Source of the DNA: a virus
UHGV virus genome: UHGV-0121572
Reading direction: 5' to 3' (one strand)
DNA: 34,306 nucleotides
Numbering within the stretch: the first letter of the stretch is position 1; each line of letters begins with the position of its first letter. This document shows, piece after piece, positions 2,302 to 12,266 of the stretch. The translations under genes and the position numbers were made by a program. The notes under the pieces were generated by a model. That model ran no database searches. It saw nothing but the letters and a program-made list of their open reading frames with translations, and had not been told where the DNA came from.

Positions 2302-2489
2302 AAAAAATGCCCTCCAGTAGAGAGCATTTTCACTGTATGTATAACCAGTGTCAATGTATGAAATCCTACGACCATACATCTCACTGAAGCCATAATTAAG
2401 TTGGCTATTCTTTTTGCTATGTGAGCATGTAATTTTTGCGGTTAACCTGCGGCTCATTTTTATTTTAGGCGCAGATATAAAAGCAAAAG

Positions 2490-2697: not shown

Positions 2698-3354
2698 CTA
2701 TTTAACATACTTGACTGTTAAACTTATAATTTTACCAATTATTTCAATGTCTTCTATCTTGCATTCGAAGGCTCTGTTTCCACCCTCGACGAAGATTCTT
2801 CCACCGGGTAAACGAGTAATGTCACGGATCGTTATTTCGCCATCAATACTTATTACCCATTTACCATCACGTATATCATCAAATTCCTTATCACAAATAA
2901 ATTCAGAATTATTATCTGTGATTGCAAAAATATTCTTGAATGCCGACGGTAGAAATTCCCTATCGAAAATATAAAAACCGTCTTCACATAAGGCCCCATC
3001 AGATAATACATATTTAGCAACTTCCATAGTATTTGTATTTGCTGATGCTTGCTTTGAACCATGCCCTGTTGTTAGCCAATTAAGCGAGGTGCCCGTTTCA
3101 AGGGCGCACTGGATTACCCAATCTGCTGGAAAAATATCACGCATATAGCGCGTTGCCATGGTGCTCTTAGAAACACCTAAATGATCACAGAGAGCCTGAC
3201 GGGTACCGAACCCATATGCTTCAACTAAACGTTCTATGGCTTTCTTACCGCCGCTATTGAAATCCACAAGTCCTCCAAAGAAATCCAAAATTCGTTGACA
3301 GATTCCAAAAGCGATCTTAAAGTTGAACCAGAAGTGTTCTTTTGGAGCCTTCAC
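2698..3354 (-). CDS. cI: Phage 186-type CI immunity repressor
   Basis: Recalled similarity to 186 CI: N-terminal CI-type HTH (…[25 protein letters not shown]…[15 protein letters not shown]) and C-terminal domain (…[25 protein letters not shown]…); divergent from the rightward early operon; exact start uncertain. Confidence 0.8.
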
Positions 3355-5481: not shown

Positions 5482-6335
5482 GCACCATCCTGAAATGGGC
5501 GGGAAATAAAACCGCCATTATGTCCGAACTGAAAAAACACCTTCCTGCTGGCCCGCGACTGGTTGAACCTTTCGCGGGTTCCTGTGCTGTGATGATGGAG
5601 ACGGATTACCCCAGCTATCTGGTTGCGGATATTAATCCTGATTTAATCAACCTCTATAAAAAGGTTGCCGCTGATTGTGAATCGTTTATATCTCGCGCCA
5701 GAGTTTTATTTGAGATCGCAAACAGGGAGGTGGCTTATTACAACATAAGGCAGGAGTTTAATTACTCCACTGAAATTACTGATTTCATGAAAGCGGTATA
5801 TTTCCTGTATCTCAATCGTCACGGTTACCGTGGTTTATGTCGCTATAACAAGAGCGGGCATTTCAACATTCCCTACGGTAATTATAAAAATCCGTATTTC
5901 CCTGAAAAAGAAATTCGCGCATTTGCAGAAAAGGCCCAGCGAGCAACGTTTATCTGCGCCAGCTTTGATGAAACGCTGGCGATGTTGAAGGCGGGGGATG
6001 TGGTGTATTGCGATCCGCCGTATGACGGTACGTTTTCCGGCTATCACACTGACGGCTTCACTGAAGATGACCAGTATCACCTGGCATCTGTTCTTGAACA
6101 TCGGTCATCAGAAGGACATCCGGTCATTGTTTCTAACAGTGACACATCCCTGATCCGTTCGCTGTATCGCAATTTTACTCACCACTACATCAAGGCAAAA
6201 CGCAGCATCGGTGTGGCAGCTGGCGAGGGTAAATCAGCAACAGAAATCATTGCTGTTTCCGGGCCGCGCTGCTGGGTGGGATTTGATTATTCGCGTGGAG
6301 TGGATAGTTCTGCCGTGTACGGAGTACGTGCATGA
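5478..6335 (+). CDS. dam: Dam-like DNA N6-adenine methyltransferase
   Basis: ORF 5418..6335; ATG at 5478 with GGAGGTG RBS gives N-terminus [11 protein letters not shown] (AdoMet motif) and catalytic DPPY motif (…[10 protein letters not shown]…); stop overlaps start of A. Confidence 0.85.
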
Positions 6336-8746
6336 GTCATGCCGATATGAACAACTGCTGCGGCTTTAACGAAGCTGCCGCATCGTTCTCATGGAACAGC
6401 CCGAAAAAGGCCATTAACCCTTATCTGGACCCGGTGGAAGTTGCGCCGGTTTCTACGCTTTCAAACCTGATCACTCTGTACGCTGCCGATAACGAGCAGG
6501 AACAGCTGCGCCGTGAGGCGCTGAGTGATCAGGTCTGGGAGCGTTATTTCTTTAATGAATCCCGTGATCCTGTCCAGCGCGAAATGGAACAGGATAAGCT
6601 CATTAGTCGGGCAAAGCTGGTGCATGAGCAGCAGCGTTTTAATCCGGATATGGTCATTCTGGCGGACGTCAACGCCCAGCCTTCCCATATCAGCAAGCCG
6701 CTGATGCAACGTATTGAATACTTCAGCAGCCTTGGCAGGACAAAGGCTTATTCCCGCTATTTACGTGAGACGATTAAGCCATGTCTGGAACGACTGGAGC
6801 ATGTACGCGACAGTCAGCTATCTGCATCTTTTCGCTTTATGGCAAGCCATGAAGGGCTGGACGGCCTGCTGATCCTGCCTGAAATGAGTCAGGATCAGGT
6901 GAAACGCCTGTCCACCCTGGTAGCTGCGCATATGAGTATGTGCCTTGATGCCGCTTGTGGCGATTTGTATGCCACCGATGACGTTAAGCCAGAAGAAATC
7001 CGCAATACATGGGAAAGGGTGGCAGCGGAAACCCTGCGTCTGGATGTAATCCCGCCTGCGTTTGAGCAACTCCGTCGGAAAAGAAACCGCCGTAAACCCG
7101 TGCCCTATGAACTCATTCCGGGTTCGCTGGCGCGTATGTTGTGCGCCGACTGGTGGTATCGGAAATTATGGAAGATGCGTTGCGAATGGCGGGAAGAGCA
7201 GTTGCGTGCTGTCTGCCTTGTCAGCAAAAAAGCATCTCCCTATGTCAGCTATGAAGCCGTGTTGCATAAACGTGAGCAGCGCCGTAAGTCGCTGGAGTTT
7301 TTCCGTTCTCATGAACTGGTGAACGAAGACGGCGACACGCTGGACATGGAGGATGTGGTAAACGCCAGCAGCAGCAACCCTGCGCATCGCCGCAATGAGA
7401 TGATGGCCTGTGTTAAAGGTCTGGAGCTTATCGCGGAAATGCGCGGTGACTGCGCCGTTTTCTACACCATCACCTGTCCGTCACGTTTCCATTCCACGCT
7501 AAATAACGGCAGGCCCAACCCGACCTGGACAAATGCGACGGTAAGACAAAGCAGCGATTATCTGGTCGGTATGTTTGCTGCATTTCGTAAGGCGATGCAC
7601 AAAGCCGGGTTGCGCTGGTATGGCGTGCGGGTGGCTGAGCCGCATCACGACGGCACAGTTCACTGGCACCTGTTGTGTTTCATGCGCAAAAAAGACCGCC
7701 GCGCCATTACTGCATTGTTGCGTAAGTTTGCTATCCGTGAAGACCGCGAGGAGCTGGGCAATAACACGGGGCCGCGCTTTAAGTCTGAGCTGATTAACCC
7801 GCGCAAAGGAACGCCGACAAGCTACATAGCGAAATACATCAGTAAGAACATTGACGGGCGTGGTCTGGCTGGCGAGATCAGCAAGGAAACGGGTAAATCT
7901 CTGCGTGATAACGCTGAATACGTGAACGCCTGGGCGTCTTTGCATCGTGTTCAGCAATTCCGCTTCTTTGGCATTCCGGGGCGTCAGGCTTACCGTGAAC
8001 TGCGATTGCTGGCTGGTCAGGCGGCAAGGCAACAGGGGGACAAAAAAGCAGGTGCGCCGGTACTGGATAACCCGCGCCTTGATGCCATCCTGGCTGCTGC
8101 TGATGCTGGTTGTTTTGCCACCTACATCATGAAGCAGGGCGGCGTACTGGTTCCCCGTAAATATCACCTCATCAGAACCGCTTATGAAATCAACGAAGAG
8201 CCGACCGCCTATGGCGATCACGGCATTCGTATTTATGGCATCTGGTCACCTATTGCAGAGGGCAAGATCTGCACTCATGCAGTGAAGTGGAAAATGGTTC
8301 GTAAAGCCGTTGACGTTCAGGAGGCGGCAGCCGACCAGAGCGCTTGCGCCCCTTGGACTCGTGGCAATAACTGTCCCCTTGCTGAAAATTTGAACCAACA
8401 GGAGAAAGATAAATCAGCTGATGGGGACACCAGAACGGATATTACCCGCATGGATGACAAGGAGTTGCACGATTTTCTGCACAGTATGAACAAAAAAGAG
8501 CGCCGGGAACTGGCTGCAAGGTTACGCCTGGTGAAACCGAAACGGCGTAGAAACTACAAACAGCGAATTACAGACCATCAACGACAGCAGCTCGTCTATG
8601 AACTGAAGTCCAGAGGATTTGATGGCAGCGAGAAAGAGGTAGATTTACTCCTTCGCGGTGGCAGTATTCCGTCAGGAGCAGGCCTGCGTATCTTCTATCG
8701 GAACCAGCGTCTGAAGGAAGATGATAAGTGGCGGAACCTGTATTAA
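6332..8746 (+). CDS. A: Replication initiation endonuclease (P2 gpA / 186 A family, rolling-circle initiator)
   Basis: 804-aa ORF, last large gene of the early operon; size, position and internal region (…[13 protein letters not shown]…[14 protein letters not shown]…) consistent with P2 A-type replication protein. Confidence 0.85.
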
Positions 8747-8838
8747 TTACGCGGGTTAACAATTCGTGCTCTTAATAATACCAGGCATATCAGGCCGATG
8801 AACGTAAAAAAACGTTTTACATCAGTAAGATTATTATA

Positions 8839-8858
8839 TACTGTAAATATAAACAGTG
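8839..8858. promoter_or_regulatory. LexA (SOS) box TACTGTAAATATAAACAGTG
   Basis: Exact match to CTGT-N8-ACAG with AT-rich spacer, ~40 bp upstream of ORF 8899..9087; a second partial half-site (…TATACAGTA) lies just downstream. Confidence 0.6.
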
Positions 8859-8898
8859 GTTATGTATACAGTATTGCTTTGGTGTTATAGGAGGAAAG

Positions 8899-9087
8899 AT
8901 GCAGGACTATTTTTTGGAGTCTTTGAAGCTCCAGCGCATTGATTTTTTTCTTAAGCTTGTAGCGGCTAGTGAGTGTAGTGATGAAGAGAAGGGGCTGGCC
9001 CTGCAGTGGGTTTCTGAACTGACAGATGAACTCATGGCAAAAATCAGAACCCACGAATACAACCGCTCAATGGATGTCATCAGCTGA
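8899..9087 (+). CDS. Hypothetical SOS-controlled small protein (possible N-terminal part of a Tum-like antirepressor)
   Basis: 62-aa ORF with strong AGGAGG RBS directly downstream of the LexA box. Confidence 0.5.
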   Translation: MQDYFLESLKLQRIDFFLKLVAASECSDEEKGLALQWVSELTDELMAKIRTHEYNRSMDVIS

Positions 9088-9097
9088 GGTGACTTTT

Positions 9098-9331
9098 ATG
9101 CGCATTGAAATAATGATCGATAAAGAGCAGAAGATTAGCCAGTCTACACTAGACGCCCTTGAATCCGAGCTTTACCGCAATCTGCGCCCCCTGTATCCCA
9201 AAACGGTAATTCGTATCCGCAAAGGTAGCTCTAACGGTGTGGAACTGACCGGACTGCAACTGGACGAAGAAAGAAAACAAGTGATGAAAATTATGCAGAA
9301 GGTGTGGGAAGACGACAGCTGGCTGCATTAA
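9098..9331 (+). CDS. DinI-like protein (Tum C-terminal-domain-like)
   Basis: ORF 9026..9331; ATG at 9098 with GAGGTG RBS gives a 77-aa product MRIEIMIDKEQ…QKVWEDDSWLH matching the DinI family profile (MRIE… start, acidic W-containing C-terminus). Confidence 0.75.
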   Translation: MRIEIMIDKEQKISQSTLDALESELYRNLRPLYPKTVIRIRKGSSNGVELTGLQLDEERKQVMKIMQKVWEDDSWLH

Positions 9332-9490
9332 GAAACGTTGCTGGCGTCTGAAATTGCTTCTGGCGTCAGCAAGGTTGAACAACGAGTACAGTGAGGCGTT
9401 AGGTGTGGCGTTTATTTGATGAGTGAACGCCCTTTCTGCGACAGGTTTGGAGATTAAGGTTGAAACTACGGGCAAAATACCATCTTTTTC

Positions 9491-9916
9491 CTACTTAATT
9501 GAGTCCAGTAACAAGTTACAGTTACTCTCATTGTAGAGAGAACGAGCAATTAGTGTTACCTGCTTTCCATTCATTCCCGGCTTATCCCATAACACAGCTT
9601 CTTGCGACGCCACAAATTCAGCATAATCAATTATGCGTTGTTCGTGATCTGGTTCCTCATAGCCAAAGTATGAGAGCGCATCGTTGTAAGCGTGGTAAGC
9701 TGCTTTCTGTAATATCTTGATATCGGCTGTAGGTACTTGCTCCGTGTAGCTAGGATCTAATTGTGTGCTACTGCCATAGAATGCACATGAAAGGTAAGAT
9801 ATTGATTTCTGTTGAGCTTTAGTTCCTTTCTCATAGTTTTTAGCTGTTACCGCCTGAACTGGGACGCTAACAAAGCTTGCAACCAGAATTAAAATTAATA
9901 CGTAAAAGCTTTTCAT
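9491..9916 (-). CDS. Secreted/periplasmic protein of unknown function (141 aa), cargo (moron) candidate
   Basis: N-terminal signal peptide MKSFYVLILILVASFVSVPVQA with A-x-A-like cleavage site; GAGG RBS; opposite strand to flanking phage genes. Confidence 0.6.
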   Translation of the reverse strand: MKSFYVLILILVASFVSVPVQAVTAKNYEKGTKAQQKSISYLSCAFYGSSTQLDPSYTEQVPTADIKILQKAAYHAYNDALSYFGYEEPDHEQRIIDYAEFVASQEAVLWDKPGMNGKQVTLIARSLYNESNCNLLLDSIK

Positions 9917-10189
9917 TTTGACCTCAGCCGAAACGTTAGAGAGACTATCGAAGTTTGTAAAACCCGTGGCGATTCAGTTTGAGATCCTCCCCCTTACATG
10001 ATTTTTAATCAAATATATGCTTTTGTAAGCATACCTGTTAACCGAATTATTCATTTTTAGAGATCTTCCGACATACTGATTATGCCCGCTGAGGAGTTCA
10101 CCTTGCGTAAAGTCCGATTCGCTTTACTCGTCTGTGCATGTCTATGCTGCATGAGATTGCATGATCGTTTGAGGATCGTTTTTGCTAAG

Positions 10190-10214
10190 GCCCGCCAGAA
10201 CTGGCGGGCTTTTG
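10190..10214 (+). terminator. Rho-independent terminator ending the early/SOS rightward transcription unit
   Basis: GC-rich hairpin GCCCGCC-AGAACT-GGCGGGC followed by TTTTG. Confidence 0.6.
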
Positions 10215-10258
10215 CGTAGATTATGCACCTGCATGAAAACCACTACATAAAGCGGGCA

Positions 10259-10277
10259 GGCGTGGCGGGGATACGAG
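10259..10277. other. Candidate cos site (cohesive-end region)
   Basis: GGCGTGGCGGGGA matches the first 13 nt of the 19-nt cohesive end of phage 186 as I recall it (P2 differs by one base there), followed by a GCGCGC block as in P2/186 cos; sits between the end of the early region and the portal/terminase cluster. Confidence 0.4.
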
Positions 10278-10289
10278 CGCGCGCCACAA

Positions 10290-10360
10290 CATATTGTAAA
10301 TATGGTGTTAATTACGTTATTATTATAACACATAGATTAATTCTTCGATGAGATAAAGGA
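10290..10360 (+). promoter_or_regulatory. AT-rich promoter-like region and RBS upstream of the ATPase-HNH operon
   Basis: TTGTAA (-35-like) and TATTAT (-10-like) hexamers but imperfect spacing; AAAGGAG RBS 6-12 nt before the ATG at 10366. Confidence 0.25.
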
Positions 10361-10365
10361 GTGTC

Positions 10366-11589
10366 ATGAAATATTCAATTGATAAATTGGTTCATAAAGA
10401 TGAATTTAATAACAATTTCGAAATTGACCTTGGAGGGAGAAATTTAATTATTACTGGTAATAATGGTTCGGGAAAGACAAATTTATTAAAAAGATTGTAT
10501 TCTGTTTTAGAGCAGAGATTGGTTAGTATAGGGGATAATACCTTAACGAAGGCCATAGAAAAGCTGAACGAAGCTGAGGAACAATTAAGGAAACGTTTGC
10601 CTGGTGATTCATTATATGATTATTTTCTTAAACAGAAGAACGAAGCTACAAGGTTTATTGATAATGAAAAGAAATTTTCAATAACTTTTAATGATGAGAG
10701 GGATTTCAAGGTTTCAATTCATGAAAGAAAATCAATCATCAGATTTTTCGAAGCAACGCGGCAGGCGAGTATACTAGGTGATGGATCTATCTCAGGGATG
10801 GAAAAATTACTTCAAGAACACAAACAGCTATCGCTGACCAAGGATTCAGGTATATTATTTGAACGCTATTTAGTCTCTTATTGGAACTACGGGTTGCTGC
10901 AGAAGGGAAGTGGGAATGATATAGAGGCTGAGCGTGTTTTCAGCTGGATAGAAAAAATAAATCAAGATTTGAAAGTGTTGTTTGAAGATGAGTCTTTAAC
11001 GCTTGATTTTAATCTGGCAGAATTACGTATTTACTTAAAACAAAACGGTAAAGCACCTTTCAGATTAGATCAATTGTCGTCAGGTTTTTCATCAGTACTA
11101 TCTATTTATGCGGATTTGTTAGTAAAAGTTGAACTTGAAAAACTCGCACGTCACGAAATTTCAGGGATCGTTTTGATTGATGAAATTGATGCACATCTTC
11201 ATGTCACCCTACAGAAAAAGGTTTTCTCGTTTTTTAGTTCAGCTTTCCCAAATATACAGTTTATAATAACAACTCACTCTCCATTTGTTGTTCAATCTGT
11301 ATCGGATTGTATTATTTTTAATTTATCCACTTTAGAAACAATGTACGATCTCTCTATGTATTCTTACACGTCAATTATAAAAGGATTGCTAGGGGAAACT
11401 TCAGAGTCTGACACTCTAAAAGAAAAAATTAAATTGTTGGAGTCAATTTATAACGATCAGCAAATTAATGTTTTAGAATTGCAGAAGGTAGTCGGAGAAC
11501 TTGAGCCATATATTGATAAGATGGATGCAGCTTCGAAAGTAAAAATAGCCCTAGCTCAGAATAAAATCATTGAGATTCTAGGGGGGTAA
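10366..11589 (+). CDS. ABC/AAA-type ATPase (AAA_15/AAA_21-like; Septu PtuA-like defence ATPase candidate)
   Basis: Walker A GNNGSGKT near N-terminus, ABC-signature-like LSSGF, Walker B VLIDEIDAHLH and H-loop TTHSP near C-terminus; visibly AT-rich; 5-bp gap to downstream HNH gene. Confidence 0.8.
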   Translation: MKYSIDKLVHKDEFNNNFEIDLGGRNLIITGNNGSGKTNLLKRLYSVLEQRLVSIGDNTLTKAIEKLNEAEEQLRKRLPGDSLYDYFLKQKNEATRFIDNEKKFSITFNDERDFKVSIHERKSIIRFFEATRQASILGDGSISGMEKLLQEHKQLSLTKDSGILFERYLVSYWNYGLLQKGSGNDIEAERVFSWIEKINQDLKVLFEDESLTLDFNLAELRIYLKQNGKAPFRLDQLSSGFSSVLSIYADLLVKVELEKLARHEISGIVLIDEIDAHLHVTLQKKVFSFFSSAFPNIQFIITTHSPFVVQSVSDCIIFNLSTLETMYDLSMYSYTSIIKGLLGETSESDTLKEKIKLLESIYNDQQINVLELQKVVGELEPYIDKMDAASKVKIALAQNKIIEILGG

Positions 11590-11594
11590 TTATT

Positions 11595-12266
11595 ATGTTT
11601 AATGTTTCTAGGGTTGCTCCAGCCCCTGCCTGTTTAGCCCGTAAGACTTATAATGATCCTACGGTTGTTGCCGCGTTAAAAAGTATGTTCTTTGGTAAGT
11701 GTTATTTATGTGAGCAAGTTGATCTTACCGATCCAGAGATTGAGCATTTTACTCCTCATCAGGGCGATACATTGCTAAAATATAGCTGGGAGAATTTATT
11801 TTATTCTTGTCGTCGTTGTAATAGTATTAAAGGCACTCGACATACTAATATTCTAAATTGTACGGATTCCAGTGTAAATGTCACCAACGAGATTGTACAT
11901 ATATTACCGGGGATTAGCTCTGAAAGGGTAACTGTTCGTCCTTTTTCTTCAAATCCTAGCCAAGAGACATTAAATACAGTAGCGTTGCTTGATGAATGTT
12001 ATAATTTAGACAATACAGGTTTGCGTGGTATTACGCGAGAAAATTTAATGGAAAAAATTTTTGACCATTATTATGAGTATATAAATGTTAGACGAGTGCT
12101 GATCACTAGAACTAGTATACAGAGTAGAATCGATGAAGCTATTGAAACACTAAAAATAATGTGTAACCCAAAATATCCTTTTTCAGCGTTTTGGGTATGG
12201 CATTTTAAGCTCGATGTTCGGCTACATGAGTTACGGCCTGAGGTTTTAGAGGTTATTGACGTGTAG
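11595..12266 (+). CDS. HNH endonuclease (Septu PtuB-like nuclease candidate)
   Basis: CxxC…EH…N…CxxCN arrangement (…GKCYLCEQVDLTDPEIEHFTPHQG…WENLFYSCRRCNS…) typical of zinc-bound HNH nucleases; GGGGG RBS; co-oriented with upstream ATPase. Confidence 0.75.
   Translation: MFNVSRVAPAPACLARKTYNDPTVVAALKSMFFGKCYLCEQVDLTDPEIEHFTPHQGDTLLKYSWENLFYSCRRCNSIKGTRHTNILNCTDSSVNVTNEIVHILPGISSERVTVRPFSSNPSQETLNTVALLDECYNLDNTGLRGITRENLMEKIFDHYYEYINVRRVLITRTSIQSRIDEAIETLKIMCNPKYPFSAFWVWHFKLDVRLHELRPEVLEVIDV

Follow-up and report, generated by a model that had tools for sequence, protein, structure and literature searches.

A probable SOS induction operon with separate antirepressor and DinI-like genes in a P2/186-family prophage

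Two small open reading frames (ORFs) follow a LexA-type operator at the end of the early region of a P2-like prophage, and the question raised by this locus is whether they are the pieces of one broken tum gene, as known from phage 186, or a switch that is genuinely built from two genes. We analysed the locus in the window, by which we mean the whole 34,306-nt stretch of DNA (virus genome UHGV-0121572), following up a sequence-only reading which had proposed a 186 tum-like, LexA-controlled module made of a LexA box, a small ORF and a DinI-like ORF. All three parts were found, directly after gene A, and the proposed identity is borne out by the homology of both ORFs (ORF1 and ORF2) to Tum, by a 186-type CI repressor and by a 98%-identical orthologue that has been tested genetically. 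The module is very probably the operon for SOS induction in a P2-family prophage of the Fels-2/DuoHS type, with ORF1 as the antirepressor and ORF2 as a separate DinI-family gene, and corresponds as such to the SOS-controlled switch that has already been described for P2/186-family prophages of the Fels-2 type. Coordinates of the features are collected in Table 1.

Table 1. Features of the predicted SOS induction operon and of the associated repressor and integrase regions in the window.
Feature	Position	Strand	Basis or detail
Probable second LexA operator before int	2331..2357	-	TTGACA, CTGGTTATACATACAG, TGAAAAT
186-type CI immunity repressor, presumed ORF1 target	2698..3267	-	Pfam; start set by DuoHS alignment
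Putative -35 hexamer TTTACA of tum promoter (p95 equivalent)	8816..8821	+	Read from sequence
SOS box 1, TACTGTAAATATAAACAGTG (core 8841-8856)	8839..8858	+	First six bases are the putative -10
SOS box 2, CAGTGGTTATGTATACAGTA (core GTGG-N8-ACAG, 8856-8871)	8854..8873	+	Consensus match, relatives
ORF1, tumA-type antirepressor gene, 62 aa	8899..9087	+	Ribosome-binding site (RBS) GGAGG 8890-8894; Tum homology
ORF2, DinI-like/tumB-type gene, 77 aa	9098..9331	+	RBS GAGGTGA 9086-9092, overlapping ORF1 stop
Two hairpins after ORF2, candidate SOS transcript end	9338..9431	+	RNA fold z-score -2.0

The window represents a P2/186-family prophage inserted beside rcdA, with the gene order int, CI repressor, apl-like gene, cII, further early genes, Dam methylase and gene A, the P2-type replication gene (6332-8746), which is followed by cargo and by the portal and terminase genes. 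ORF1 and ORF2 lie directly 3′ of gene A, and TACTGTAAATATAAACAGTG is found in the 152 nt that separate gene A from the next ORF. The tum region is 96–98% identical to Fels-2 and E. coli P2-like phages, the DNA of the module itself being ~98% identical to Fels-2 (STM2728, STM2726.1) and to the E. coli HS prophage DuoHS, and likeness of the region to its E. coli relatives stops at ~9402. Of 5426 complete E. coli genomes, 1126 contain the region, and PGAP annotates it as two genes in every case. For comparison we used 49 related loci, one genome per species, whose ORF1 relatives range from 100% down to 40% identity and which come from Escherichia, Citrobacter, Enterobacter, Klebsiella, Raoultella, Kluyvera, Pantoea, Erwinia, Serratia, Mixta and other genera; counts out of 50 include the window. 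A gene A homologue stands immediately 5′ of the ORF1 relative in 45 of these 49 loci. An Rfam search of positions 8000-10400 gave no match.

Alignment of both ORFs to 186 Tum, the check proposed for the module, placed the ORF1 family on Tum residues 4–44 and ORF2 on residues 71–145. A profile of the ORF1 family, built from 33 diverse members, aligned its residues 4–44 with residues 4–44 of Tum (hhalign, probability 94%, E = 1.3e-7), and Tum matched phrog_698, the PHROG of ORF1, in the same register (E = 2.4e-5). ORF1, the 62-aa frame expected behind the box and preceded by a GGAGG, matches phrog_698 over its full length and also matches phrog_8554. Its homology to the N-terminal, non-DinI part of Tum rests on profiles, because pairwise BLASTP of ORF1 against 186 Tum returned no alignment; given these profile and PHROG matches, ORF1 corresponds, by homology, to the non-DinI half of Tum, here as a protein of its own. 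PSP3 TumA is matched weakly by the ORF1 family (E = 0.0035, probability 9%). A phmmer search of 1.84 billion representatives with ORF1 retrieved 66 clusters, all of them short stand-alone proteins, and reached neither 186 Tum nor any fused form. ORF1 is predicted to fold as a helical hairpin (AlphaFold, helices 2–23 and 28–61, pLDDT 87); the ORF1 profile had no match among PDB sequences, and Foldseek of the model against the PDB found generic helical hairpins only (E > 1). The gene is under strong purifying selection, with dN/dS of 0.03–0.12.

Genetic evidence comes from DuoHS, whose tum gene (ECHS_RS04495, a 189-nt gene) encodes a protein identical to ORF1 at 61 of 62 residues. In-frame deletion of this tum, or a lexA(Ind-) allele, abolishes both lysis upon mitomycin C treatment and the production of virions (Ortiz de Ora et al., PMC12055606), although in principle the deletion could lower expression of the ORF2 orthologue too. 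This amounts to the kind of experiment suggested in the sequence-only reading, carried out on a 98%-identical prophage. Antirepressor activity is also ascribed to the upstream tum gene of PSP3, in the account of Lemire et al. 2011 (PMC3121763) that cites Bunny et al. 2002.

ORF2 is the DinI-family member it had been taken for, matching the full 63-position profile of Pfam DinI (PF06183) with 81.3 bits against a cut-off of 24.2 (E = 6.6e-23). Its score against the NCBIfam equivalog of host DinI, 42.7, lies below the 111-bit cut-off, hence by sequence ORF2 belongs to the DinI family but is not an orthologue of the host protein. It is 41% identical to residues 71–145 of 186 Tum (E = 3e-24), which itself carries a Pfam DinI domain at residues 87–145, which confirms the sequence-only reading in taking the C-terminal part of Tum as DinI-like. 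Furthermore, the whole of ORF2 can be aligned with PSP3 TumB and Fels-2 STM2726.1; it is identical at 77 of 77 residues to DuoHS ECHS_RS04500 and shows dN/dS of 0.08–0.14, and its match to phrog_189 is confined to profile positions 71–148. The 186 record annotates nested tum products, including a GTG-initiated C-terminal protein of 76 aa that is the exact counterpart of ORF2 and is annotated as an SOS-induction modulator. From its family membership and from this annotation of the short Tum product, ORF2 probably tunes RecA-filament activity. The two hairpins behind it (9338-9372 and 9407-9431, the second followed by CUUUCU) may end the SOS transcript in the manner of the 186 partial terminator t95a, which the 186 record places at the same position.

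The division of labour could be thought to run the other way, with ORF2 as the effector of induction, for example via RecA, and ORF1 as an unrelated small leader gene. In favour of such a reading, neither Pfam nor NCBIfam has a family that ORF1 matches, its PHROG carries the label “unknown function”, and databases label the whole of Tum “RecA filament binding protein DinI”. We consider it very unlikely, however, as the ORF1 orthologue is required for induction in DuoHS, as ORF1 is homologous to precisely the half of Tum that is not DinI, and as ORF1 homologues preceded by a LexA box run straight into variable cargo, without a DinI-like sequence, in 28 of the 50 loci. The antirepressor activity of PSP3 lies in the upstream gene, and non-polar deletion of the dinI homologues of the Gifsy phages had no significant effect on induction (PMC3121763). 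ORF1 as the antirepressor is thus the reading we retain; ORF2, being absent from half of the relatives, is probably not essential for the switch.

At the junction of the two genes, the ORF1 stop codon (TGA, 9085-9087) overlaps the GAGGTGA of ORF2, whose ATG follows 10 nt after the stop. The overlap of about 60 nt described in the sequence-only reading arises only if an upstream in-frame ATG at 9026 is taken as the start (a 101-aa reading). It had correctly been seen that a single-base shift would fuse the ORFs, since ORF2 lies in frame +1 with respect to ORF1 and the product would have ~143 aa. Three options had been offered for this arrangement, and the one which stands is the genuinely two-part module, conserved as two cistrons with variable relative frame and under purifying selection; a split pseudogene and a frameshift or sequencing artefact are excluded by the junctions, frames and dN/dS of the relatives. 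ORF1 is a stand-alone gene of 61–62 codons in the 49 genome loci, a few obvious pseudogenes aside. Where a DinI-like sequence follows it (22 of 50 loci), this always begins 8–15 nt past the stop and has a G-rich RBS. Among the relatives, ORF2 occupies any of the three frames (0, 1 or 2) with respect to ORF1, and their in-frame stops lie 3–75 nt upstream of the ORF2 ATG, hence the 75-nt open stretch ahead of this ATG in the window is idiosyncratic. A single polypeptide joining antirepressor and DinI parts, as in the 146-aa Tum of 186, is not encoded here; the layout is instead that of PSP3 and Fels-2, in which two adjacent genes come after gene A, one for the antirepressor half and then one for a DinI-like protein of 77 aa. 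On these comparisons, the tum-DinI module is a genuine two-gene arrangement, the PSP3/Fels-2 split variant.

Two ways in which a fused protein might still be made were weighed against this arrangement. Programmed +1 frameshifting or transcriptional slippage within 9023-9087 could add some fused, Tum-sized protein: the two frames do overlap in the window, a run of five A residues is present (GCAAAAATC, at ~9038-9046), and 186 makes several nested Tum products. This is highly improbable, as no slippery motif is conserved, the open overlap is limited to the window and one near-identical relative (L008) with other frames or a stop elsewhere, half of the relatives lack a DinI gene to serve as fusion partner, and ORF2 has a strong RBS and ATG of its own. 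That the ORFs are a single tum gene broken by a frameshift, whether an error or a recent pseudogenisation, and that the functional product is the ~143-aa protein, can hardly be correct. The ORF2 frame is indeed open for 75 nt 5′ of its ATG, overlapping the end of ORF1, and the fused length would fit the 146 aa of 186 Tum. Yet the identical stop/RBS/ATG junction recurs in Fels-2, in DuoHS and in 993 E. coli genomes (at least 80% query coverage), the stand-alone ORF1 recurs in 49 loci of many genera, and the relative frame takes all three values with stops as near as 3 nt. In addition, an N-terminal ORF1 match joined to a C-terminal extension of DinI length occurs in none of the 66 representative clusters, dN/dS is at most 0.14 for both ORFs, and loss of the 62-codon gene alone abolishes induction of DuoHS. 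An artefact is excluded since the two-cistron layout recurs, the frames vary and purifying selection is strong, which leaves two separately translated genes.

The promoter/terminator scan also found a weak 6-bp hairpin at 9076-9093 (+), GTCATC-AGCTGA-GGTGAC followed by TTTTAT, which encloses the ORF1 stop, sequesters part of the ORF2 RBS and is kept in Fels-2 and DuoHS. The hairpin could couple translation of ORF2 to that of ORF1 or be fortuitous; the junction sequences at this place differ in more distant relatives, and we therefore claim neither coupling nor attenuation.

The canonical LexA box claimed ahead of the ORFs is present as TACTGTAAATATAAACAGTG, the sole exact CTGT-N8-ACAG in the window and its best match to the 20-mer consensus. 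At least one exact core match per 34 kb was also obtained in 37 of 100 shuffles, so that a single exact match is not significant by itself, and support for box 1 comes instead from where it lies and how widely it is kept. In 46 of 50 loci, a box with no more than one core mismatch is present within 100 nt upstream of the start of the ORF1 homologue, against a background of ~12 such sites per 34 kb, and even ORF1 homologues of only 40% protein identity still have the box upstream, in flanking DNA that can no longer be aligned. The four loci that lack it comprise one truncated contig, one pseudogene, one locus with a rearranged upstream region and one in which the spacer has lost a single base. 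The notion that the box is a chance AT-rich palindrome and that the operon is controlled otherwise, e.g. by read-through from the early operon, draws on the shuffles and on the stretch from gene A to the box, in which the scan found no strong terminator, but it is scarcely credible in view of this conservation despite unalignable flanks, of the like arrangement of 186 p95 and of the block that lexA(Ind-) imposes on induction of the 98%-identical DuoHS.

A second box, CAGTGGTTATGTATACAGTA, follows the first directly, as GTGGTTATGTATACAG, the two cores having one base in common. It is the tied second-best consensus match within the window, with two core mismatches against none in box 1, its GTGG being as in colicins. 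The pair is present in ~19 loci of the clade nearest to the window, where the half-sites are kept and the spacer varies; indeed, the differences in box 2 between the window, DuoHS and Fels-2 are confined to the spacer. When the 91-nt stretch with the pair was used as a query for a plasmid search, the matches were small mobilizable plasmids, and the pair is 86–92% identical over ~40 nt to sites just upstream of colicin Y and of a pore-forming, ColE1-like colicin, as well as to one on Yersinia pPCP. The locus thus has two recognisable cores that share one base pair, the form of the colicin-type double operator. Colicin double boxes bind two LexA dimers and repress very tightly (PMC2994835), and by analogy LexA would occupy both boxes here. 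Our literature search, the scope of which lay outside the Fels-2 study of Bunny et al. 2002, found no description of a colicin-type double operator in this type of prophage.

The putative tum promoter would consist of TTTACA and TACTGT with a 17-nt spacing, in the geometry annotated for 186 p95. The hexamers are weak, TACTGT matching the -10 consensus at three of six positions, and the consensus promoter/terminator scan did not call this promoter. On this assignment, the LexA operator would overlap the promoter of the antirepressor gene, as in 186. Between gene A and this promoter lies an AT-rich palindrome, GAACGT-A7-ACGTTT at 8800-8822 (+), whose A-run has six residues in Fels-2, seven in the window and eight in DuoHS. 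This palindrome may act as a weak terminator and thereby shield the SOS operon from early transcription, and similar insulation has been noted upstream of the LexA boxes of the Gifsy phages (PMC3121763).

The presumed target of ORF1 is encoded in the window by a CI repressor with the Pfam domains Phage_CI_repr and Phage_CI_C, from which the S24 peptidase domain is absent, i.e. a cognate 186-type CI that has no RecA-dependent cleavage domain. It is 33% identical to 186 CI (E = 3e-38) and 91% identical to DuoHS CI, and CII is 70% identical to 186 CII. In a lysogen, LexA on the overlapping SOS boxes over the promoter would keep the two-gene transcript off. It is established SOS biology that DNA damage leads to RecA-stimulated self-cleavage of LexA, upon which the tum operon would be transcribed. 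ORF1 would then bind the non-self-cleaving CI and take it off the lytic promoter, and with CI inactivated the prophage would enter lytic growth. We infer direct binding by analogy with 186, in which Tum sequesters and inactivates CI once the LexA-regulated p95 is derepressed (PMC7708051). ORF2 would be made from the same transcript by independent initiation at its own RBS and would modulate RecA-filament activity, being dispensable for the switch itself. By analogy with the near-identical relative DuoHS, where this was shown, the 62-aa gene and a cleavable LexA would be required for induction.

A further LexA-type box may act on the integrase gene. The sequence CTGGTTATACATACAG forms exactly the 16-nt spacer of a near-consensus promoter, TTGACA/TGAAAA(T), which is followed by GGAGGG and the int ATG (2301). 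DuoHS and P2-like phages of Klebsiella and E. coli have kept this box, its half-sites being invariant and its spacer variable. Among 120 IMG/VR contigs that carry the motif, it stands directly upstream of an Int homologue in 95, and the motif-bearing contigs include integrases only 54–56% identical whose leader is otherwise unrelated. Judged from these sequences, this suggests that int expression is SOS-gated. No description of a LexA box before int of such phages was found in our literature search, with Bunny et al. 2002 outside its scope. We tentatively suggest that LexA may control this prophage family at two points, the double-operator antirepressor operon and the int promoter, a proposal to which we give somewhat less than even chances. 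If true, the double operator would set a high-damage, delayed threshold for induction, and the integrase supply for excision would be released by the SOS signal independently of the CI/Apl switch.

Several other genes in the vicinity were noted. A Septu anti-phage defence pair fills the slot for variable cargo that separates the tum/dinI operon from the portal gene and in which relatives carry other cargo: PtuA (10366-11589, +), an AAA_21 ATPase (PADLOC, E = 1.5e-124), and PtuB (11595-12266, +), which is HNH-like (E = 2.6e-83). A 141-aa ORF at 9491-9916 (-) has a hydrophobic N-terminal stretch resembling a signal peptide and a full-length match to phrog_7437 (“unknown function”); Pfam and PADLOC searches gave no match to it. 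Between cI and the int promoter, a 72-aa ORF (2490-2708, -) has a hydrophobic N-terminal stretch, and a 161-aa ORF (732-1217, -) lies between int and the rcdA-side prophage end, neither of them matching any family; at those positions DuoHS has a 63-aa gene (cI–int) and a different small gene (int–rcdA side).

The N-terminal 44–61 residues of 186 Tum match phrog_698, phrog_8554 and phrog_1993, all labelled “unknown function”, and PSP3 TumA matches phrog_1993; by homology, these three families are TumA-type antirepressors. The family phrog_189, named “RecA filament binding protein DinI”, has a profile of 151 positions derived from proteins as long as the whole of Tum, and such a label on the whole of Tum hides the antirepressor half. 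The 62-aa gene is a “hypothetical protein” in RefSeq, yet would be the induction trigger of a prophage type present in about one-fifth of complete E. coli genomes. Confirmation of the double operator and of a LexA-gated int promoter would sharpen the picture of how these phages turn the strength of the SOS signal into induction and excision. DuoHS now serves as an in vivo model of phage transmission.

Known systems resemble the window to differing degrees. The operators of colicin and pesticin genes are like that of the window in having two 16-bp cores with one shared base, the second starting with GTGG, but they control a toxin whereas the window’s controls a prophage antirepressor, and they lie just downstream of the -10 whereas box 1 of the window appears to contain it. 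This likeness may reflect either common descent or convergence. The dinI–antirepressor (gfoA/gftA) operons of Gifsy-1, -2 and -3 are LexA-repressed, with separate genes and a repressor that is not cleaved (PMC3121763), and they share with the window a DinI homologue and a small antirepressor as separate LexA-repressed genes. They differ in having dinI first, in belonging to lambdoid phages and in that their antirepressors and repressors are of unrelated families (PMC3121763).

The p95–tum region of 186 is closer, as it too follows gene A and has a LexA box whose left arm is the -10, directs an antirepressor against a non-cleavable CI and also makes the DinI-like moiety alone. It differs in its one 146-aa polypeptide with nested starts, its single SOS box and the orf97 that follows. 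The module is already known, a split tum having been reported for Fels-2 and PSP3; in the account of PMC3121763, citing Bunny et al. 2002, tum is split by a stop codon in both. The PSP3 record annotates tumA and tumB, which are like the window in having a separate antirepressor half, a 77-aa DinI-like protein, a position after gene A and a LexA box. PSP3 differs in its single SOS box and its intercistronic gap of 3 nt, and its TumA belongs with phrog_1993, a weak match to the ORF1 family.

Fels-2 and DuoHS are the nearest of all. Fels-2 STM2728 and STM2726.1 are like the window, with ~98% identical DNA including both SOS boxes, the same junction and a position after gene A, and the same holds for DuoHS ECHS_RS04495 and ECHS_RS04500 (~98% DNA identity, both SOS boxes, same junction and position). 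Only point differences separate these modules from that of the window (one residue of ORF1, the spacer of box 2 and the length of the upstream A-run). The CI of DuoHS differs from that of the window by 9%, with most of the differences towards the N-terminal side of the alignment, and the downstream cargo of Fels-2 and DuoHS is other than the Septu of the window. DuoHS, in which the function of the module has been tested, is likewise integrated next to rcdA.
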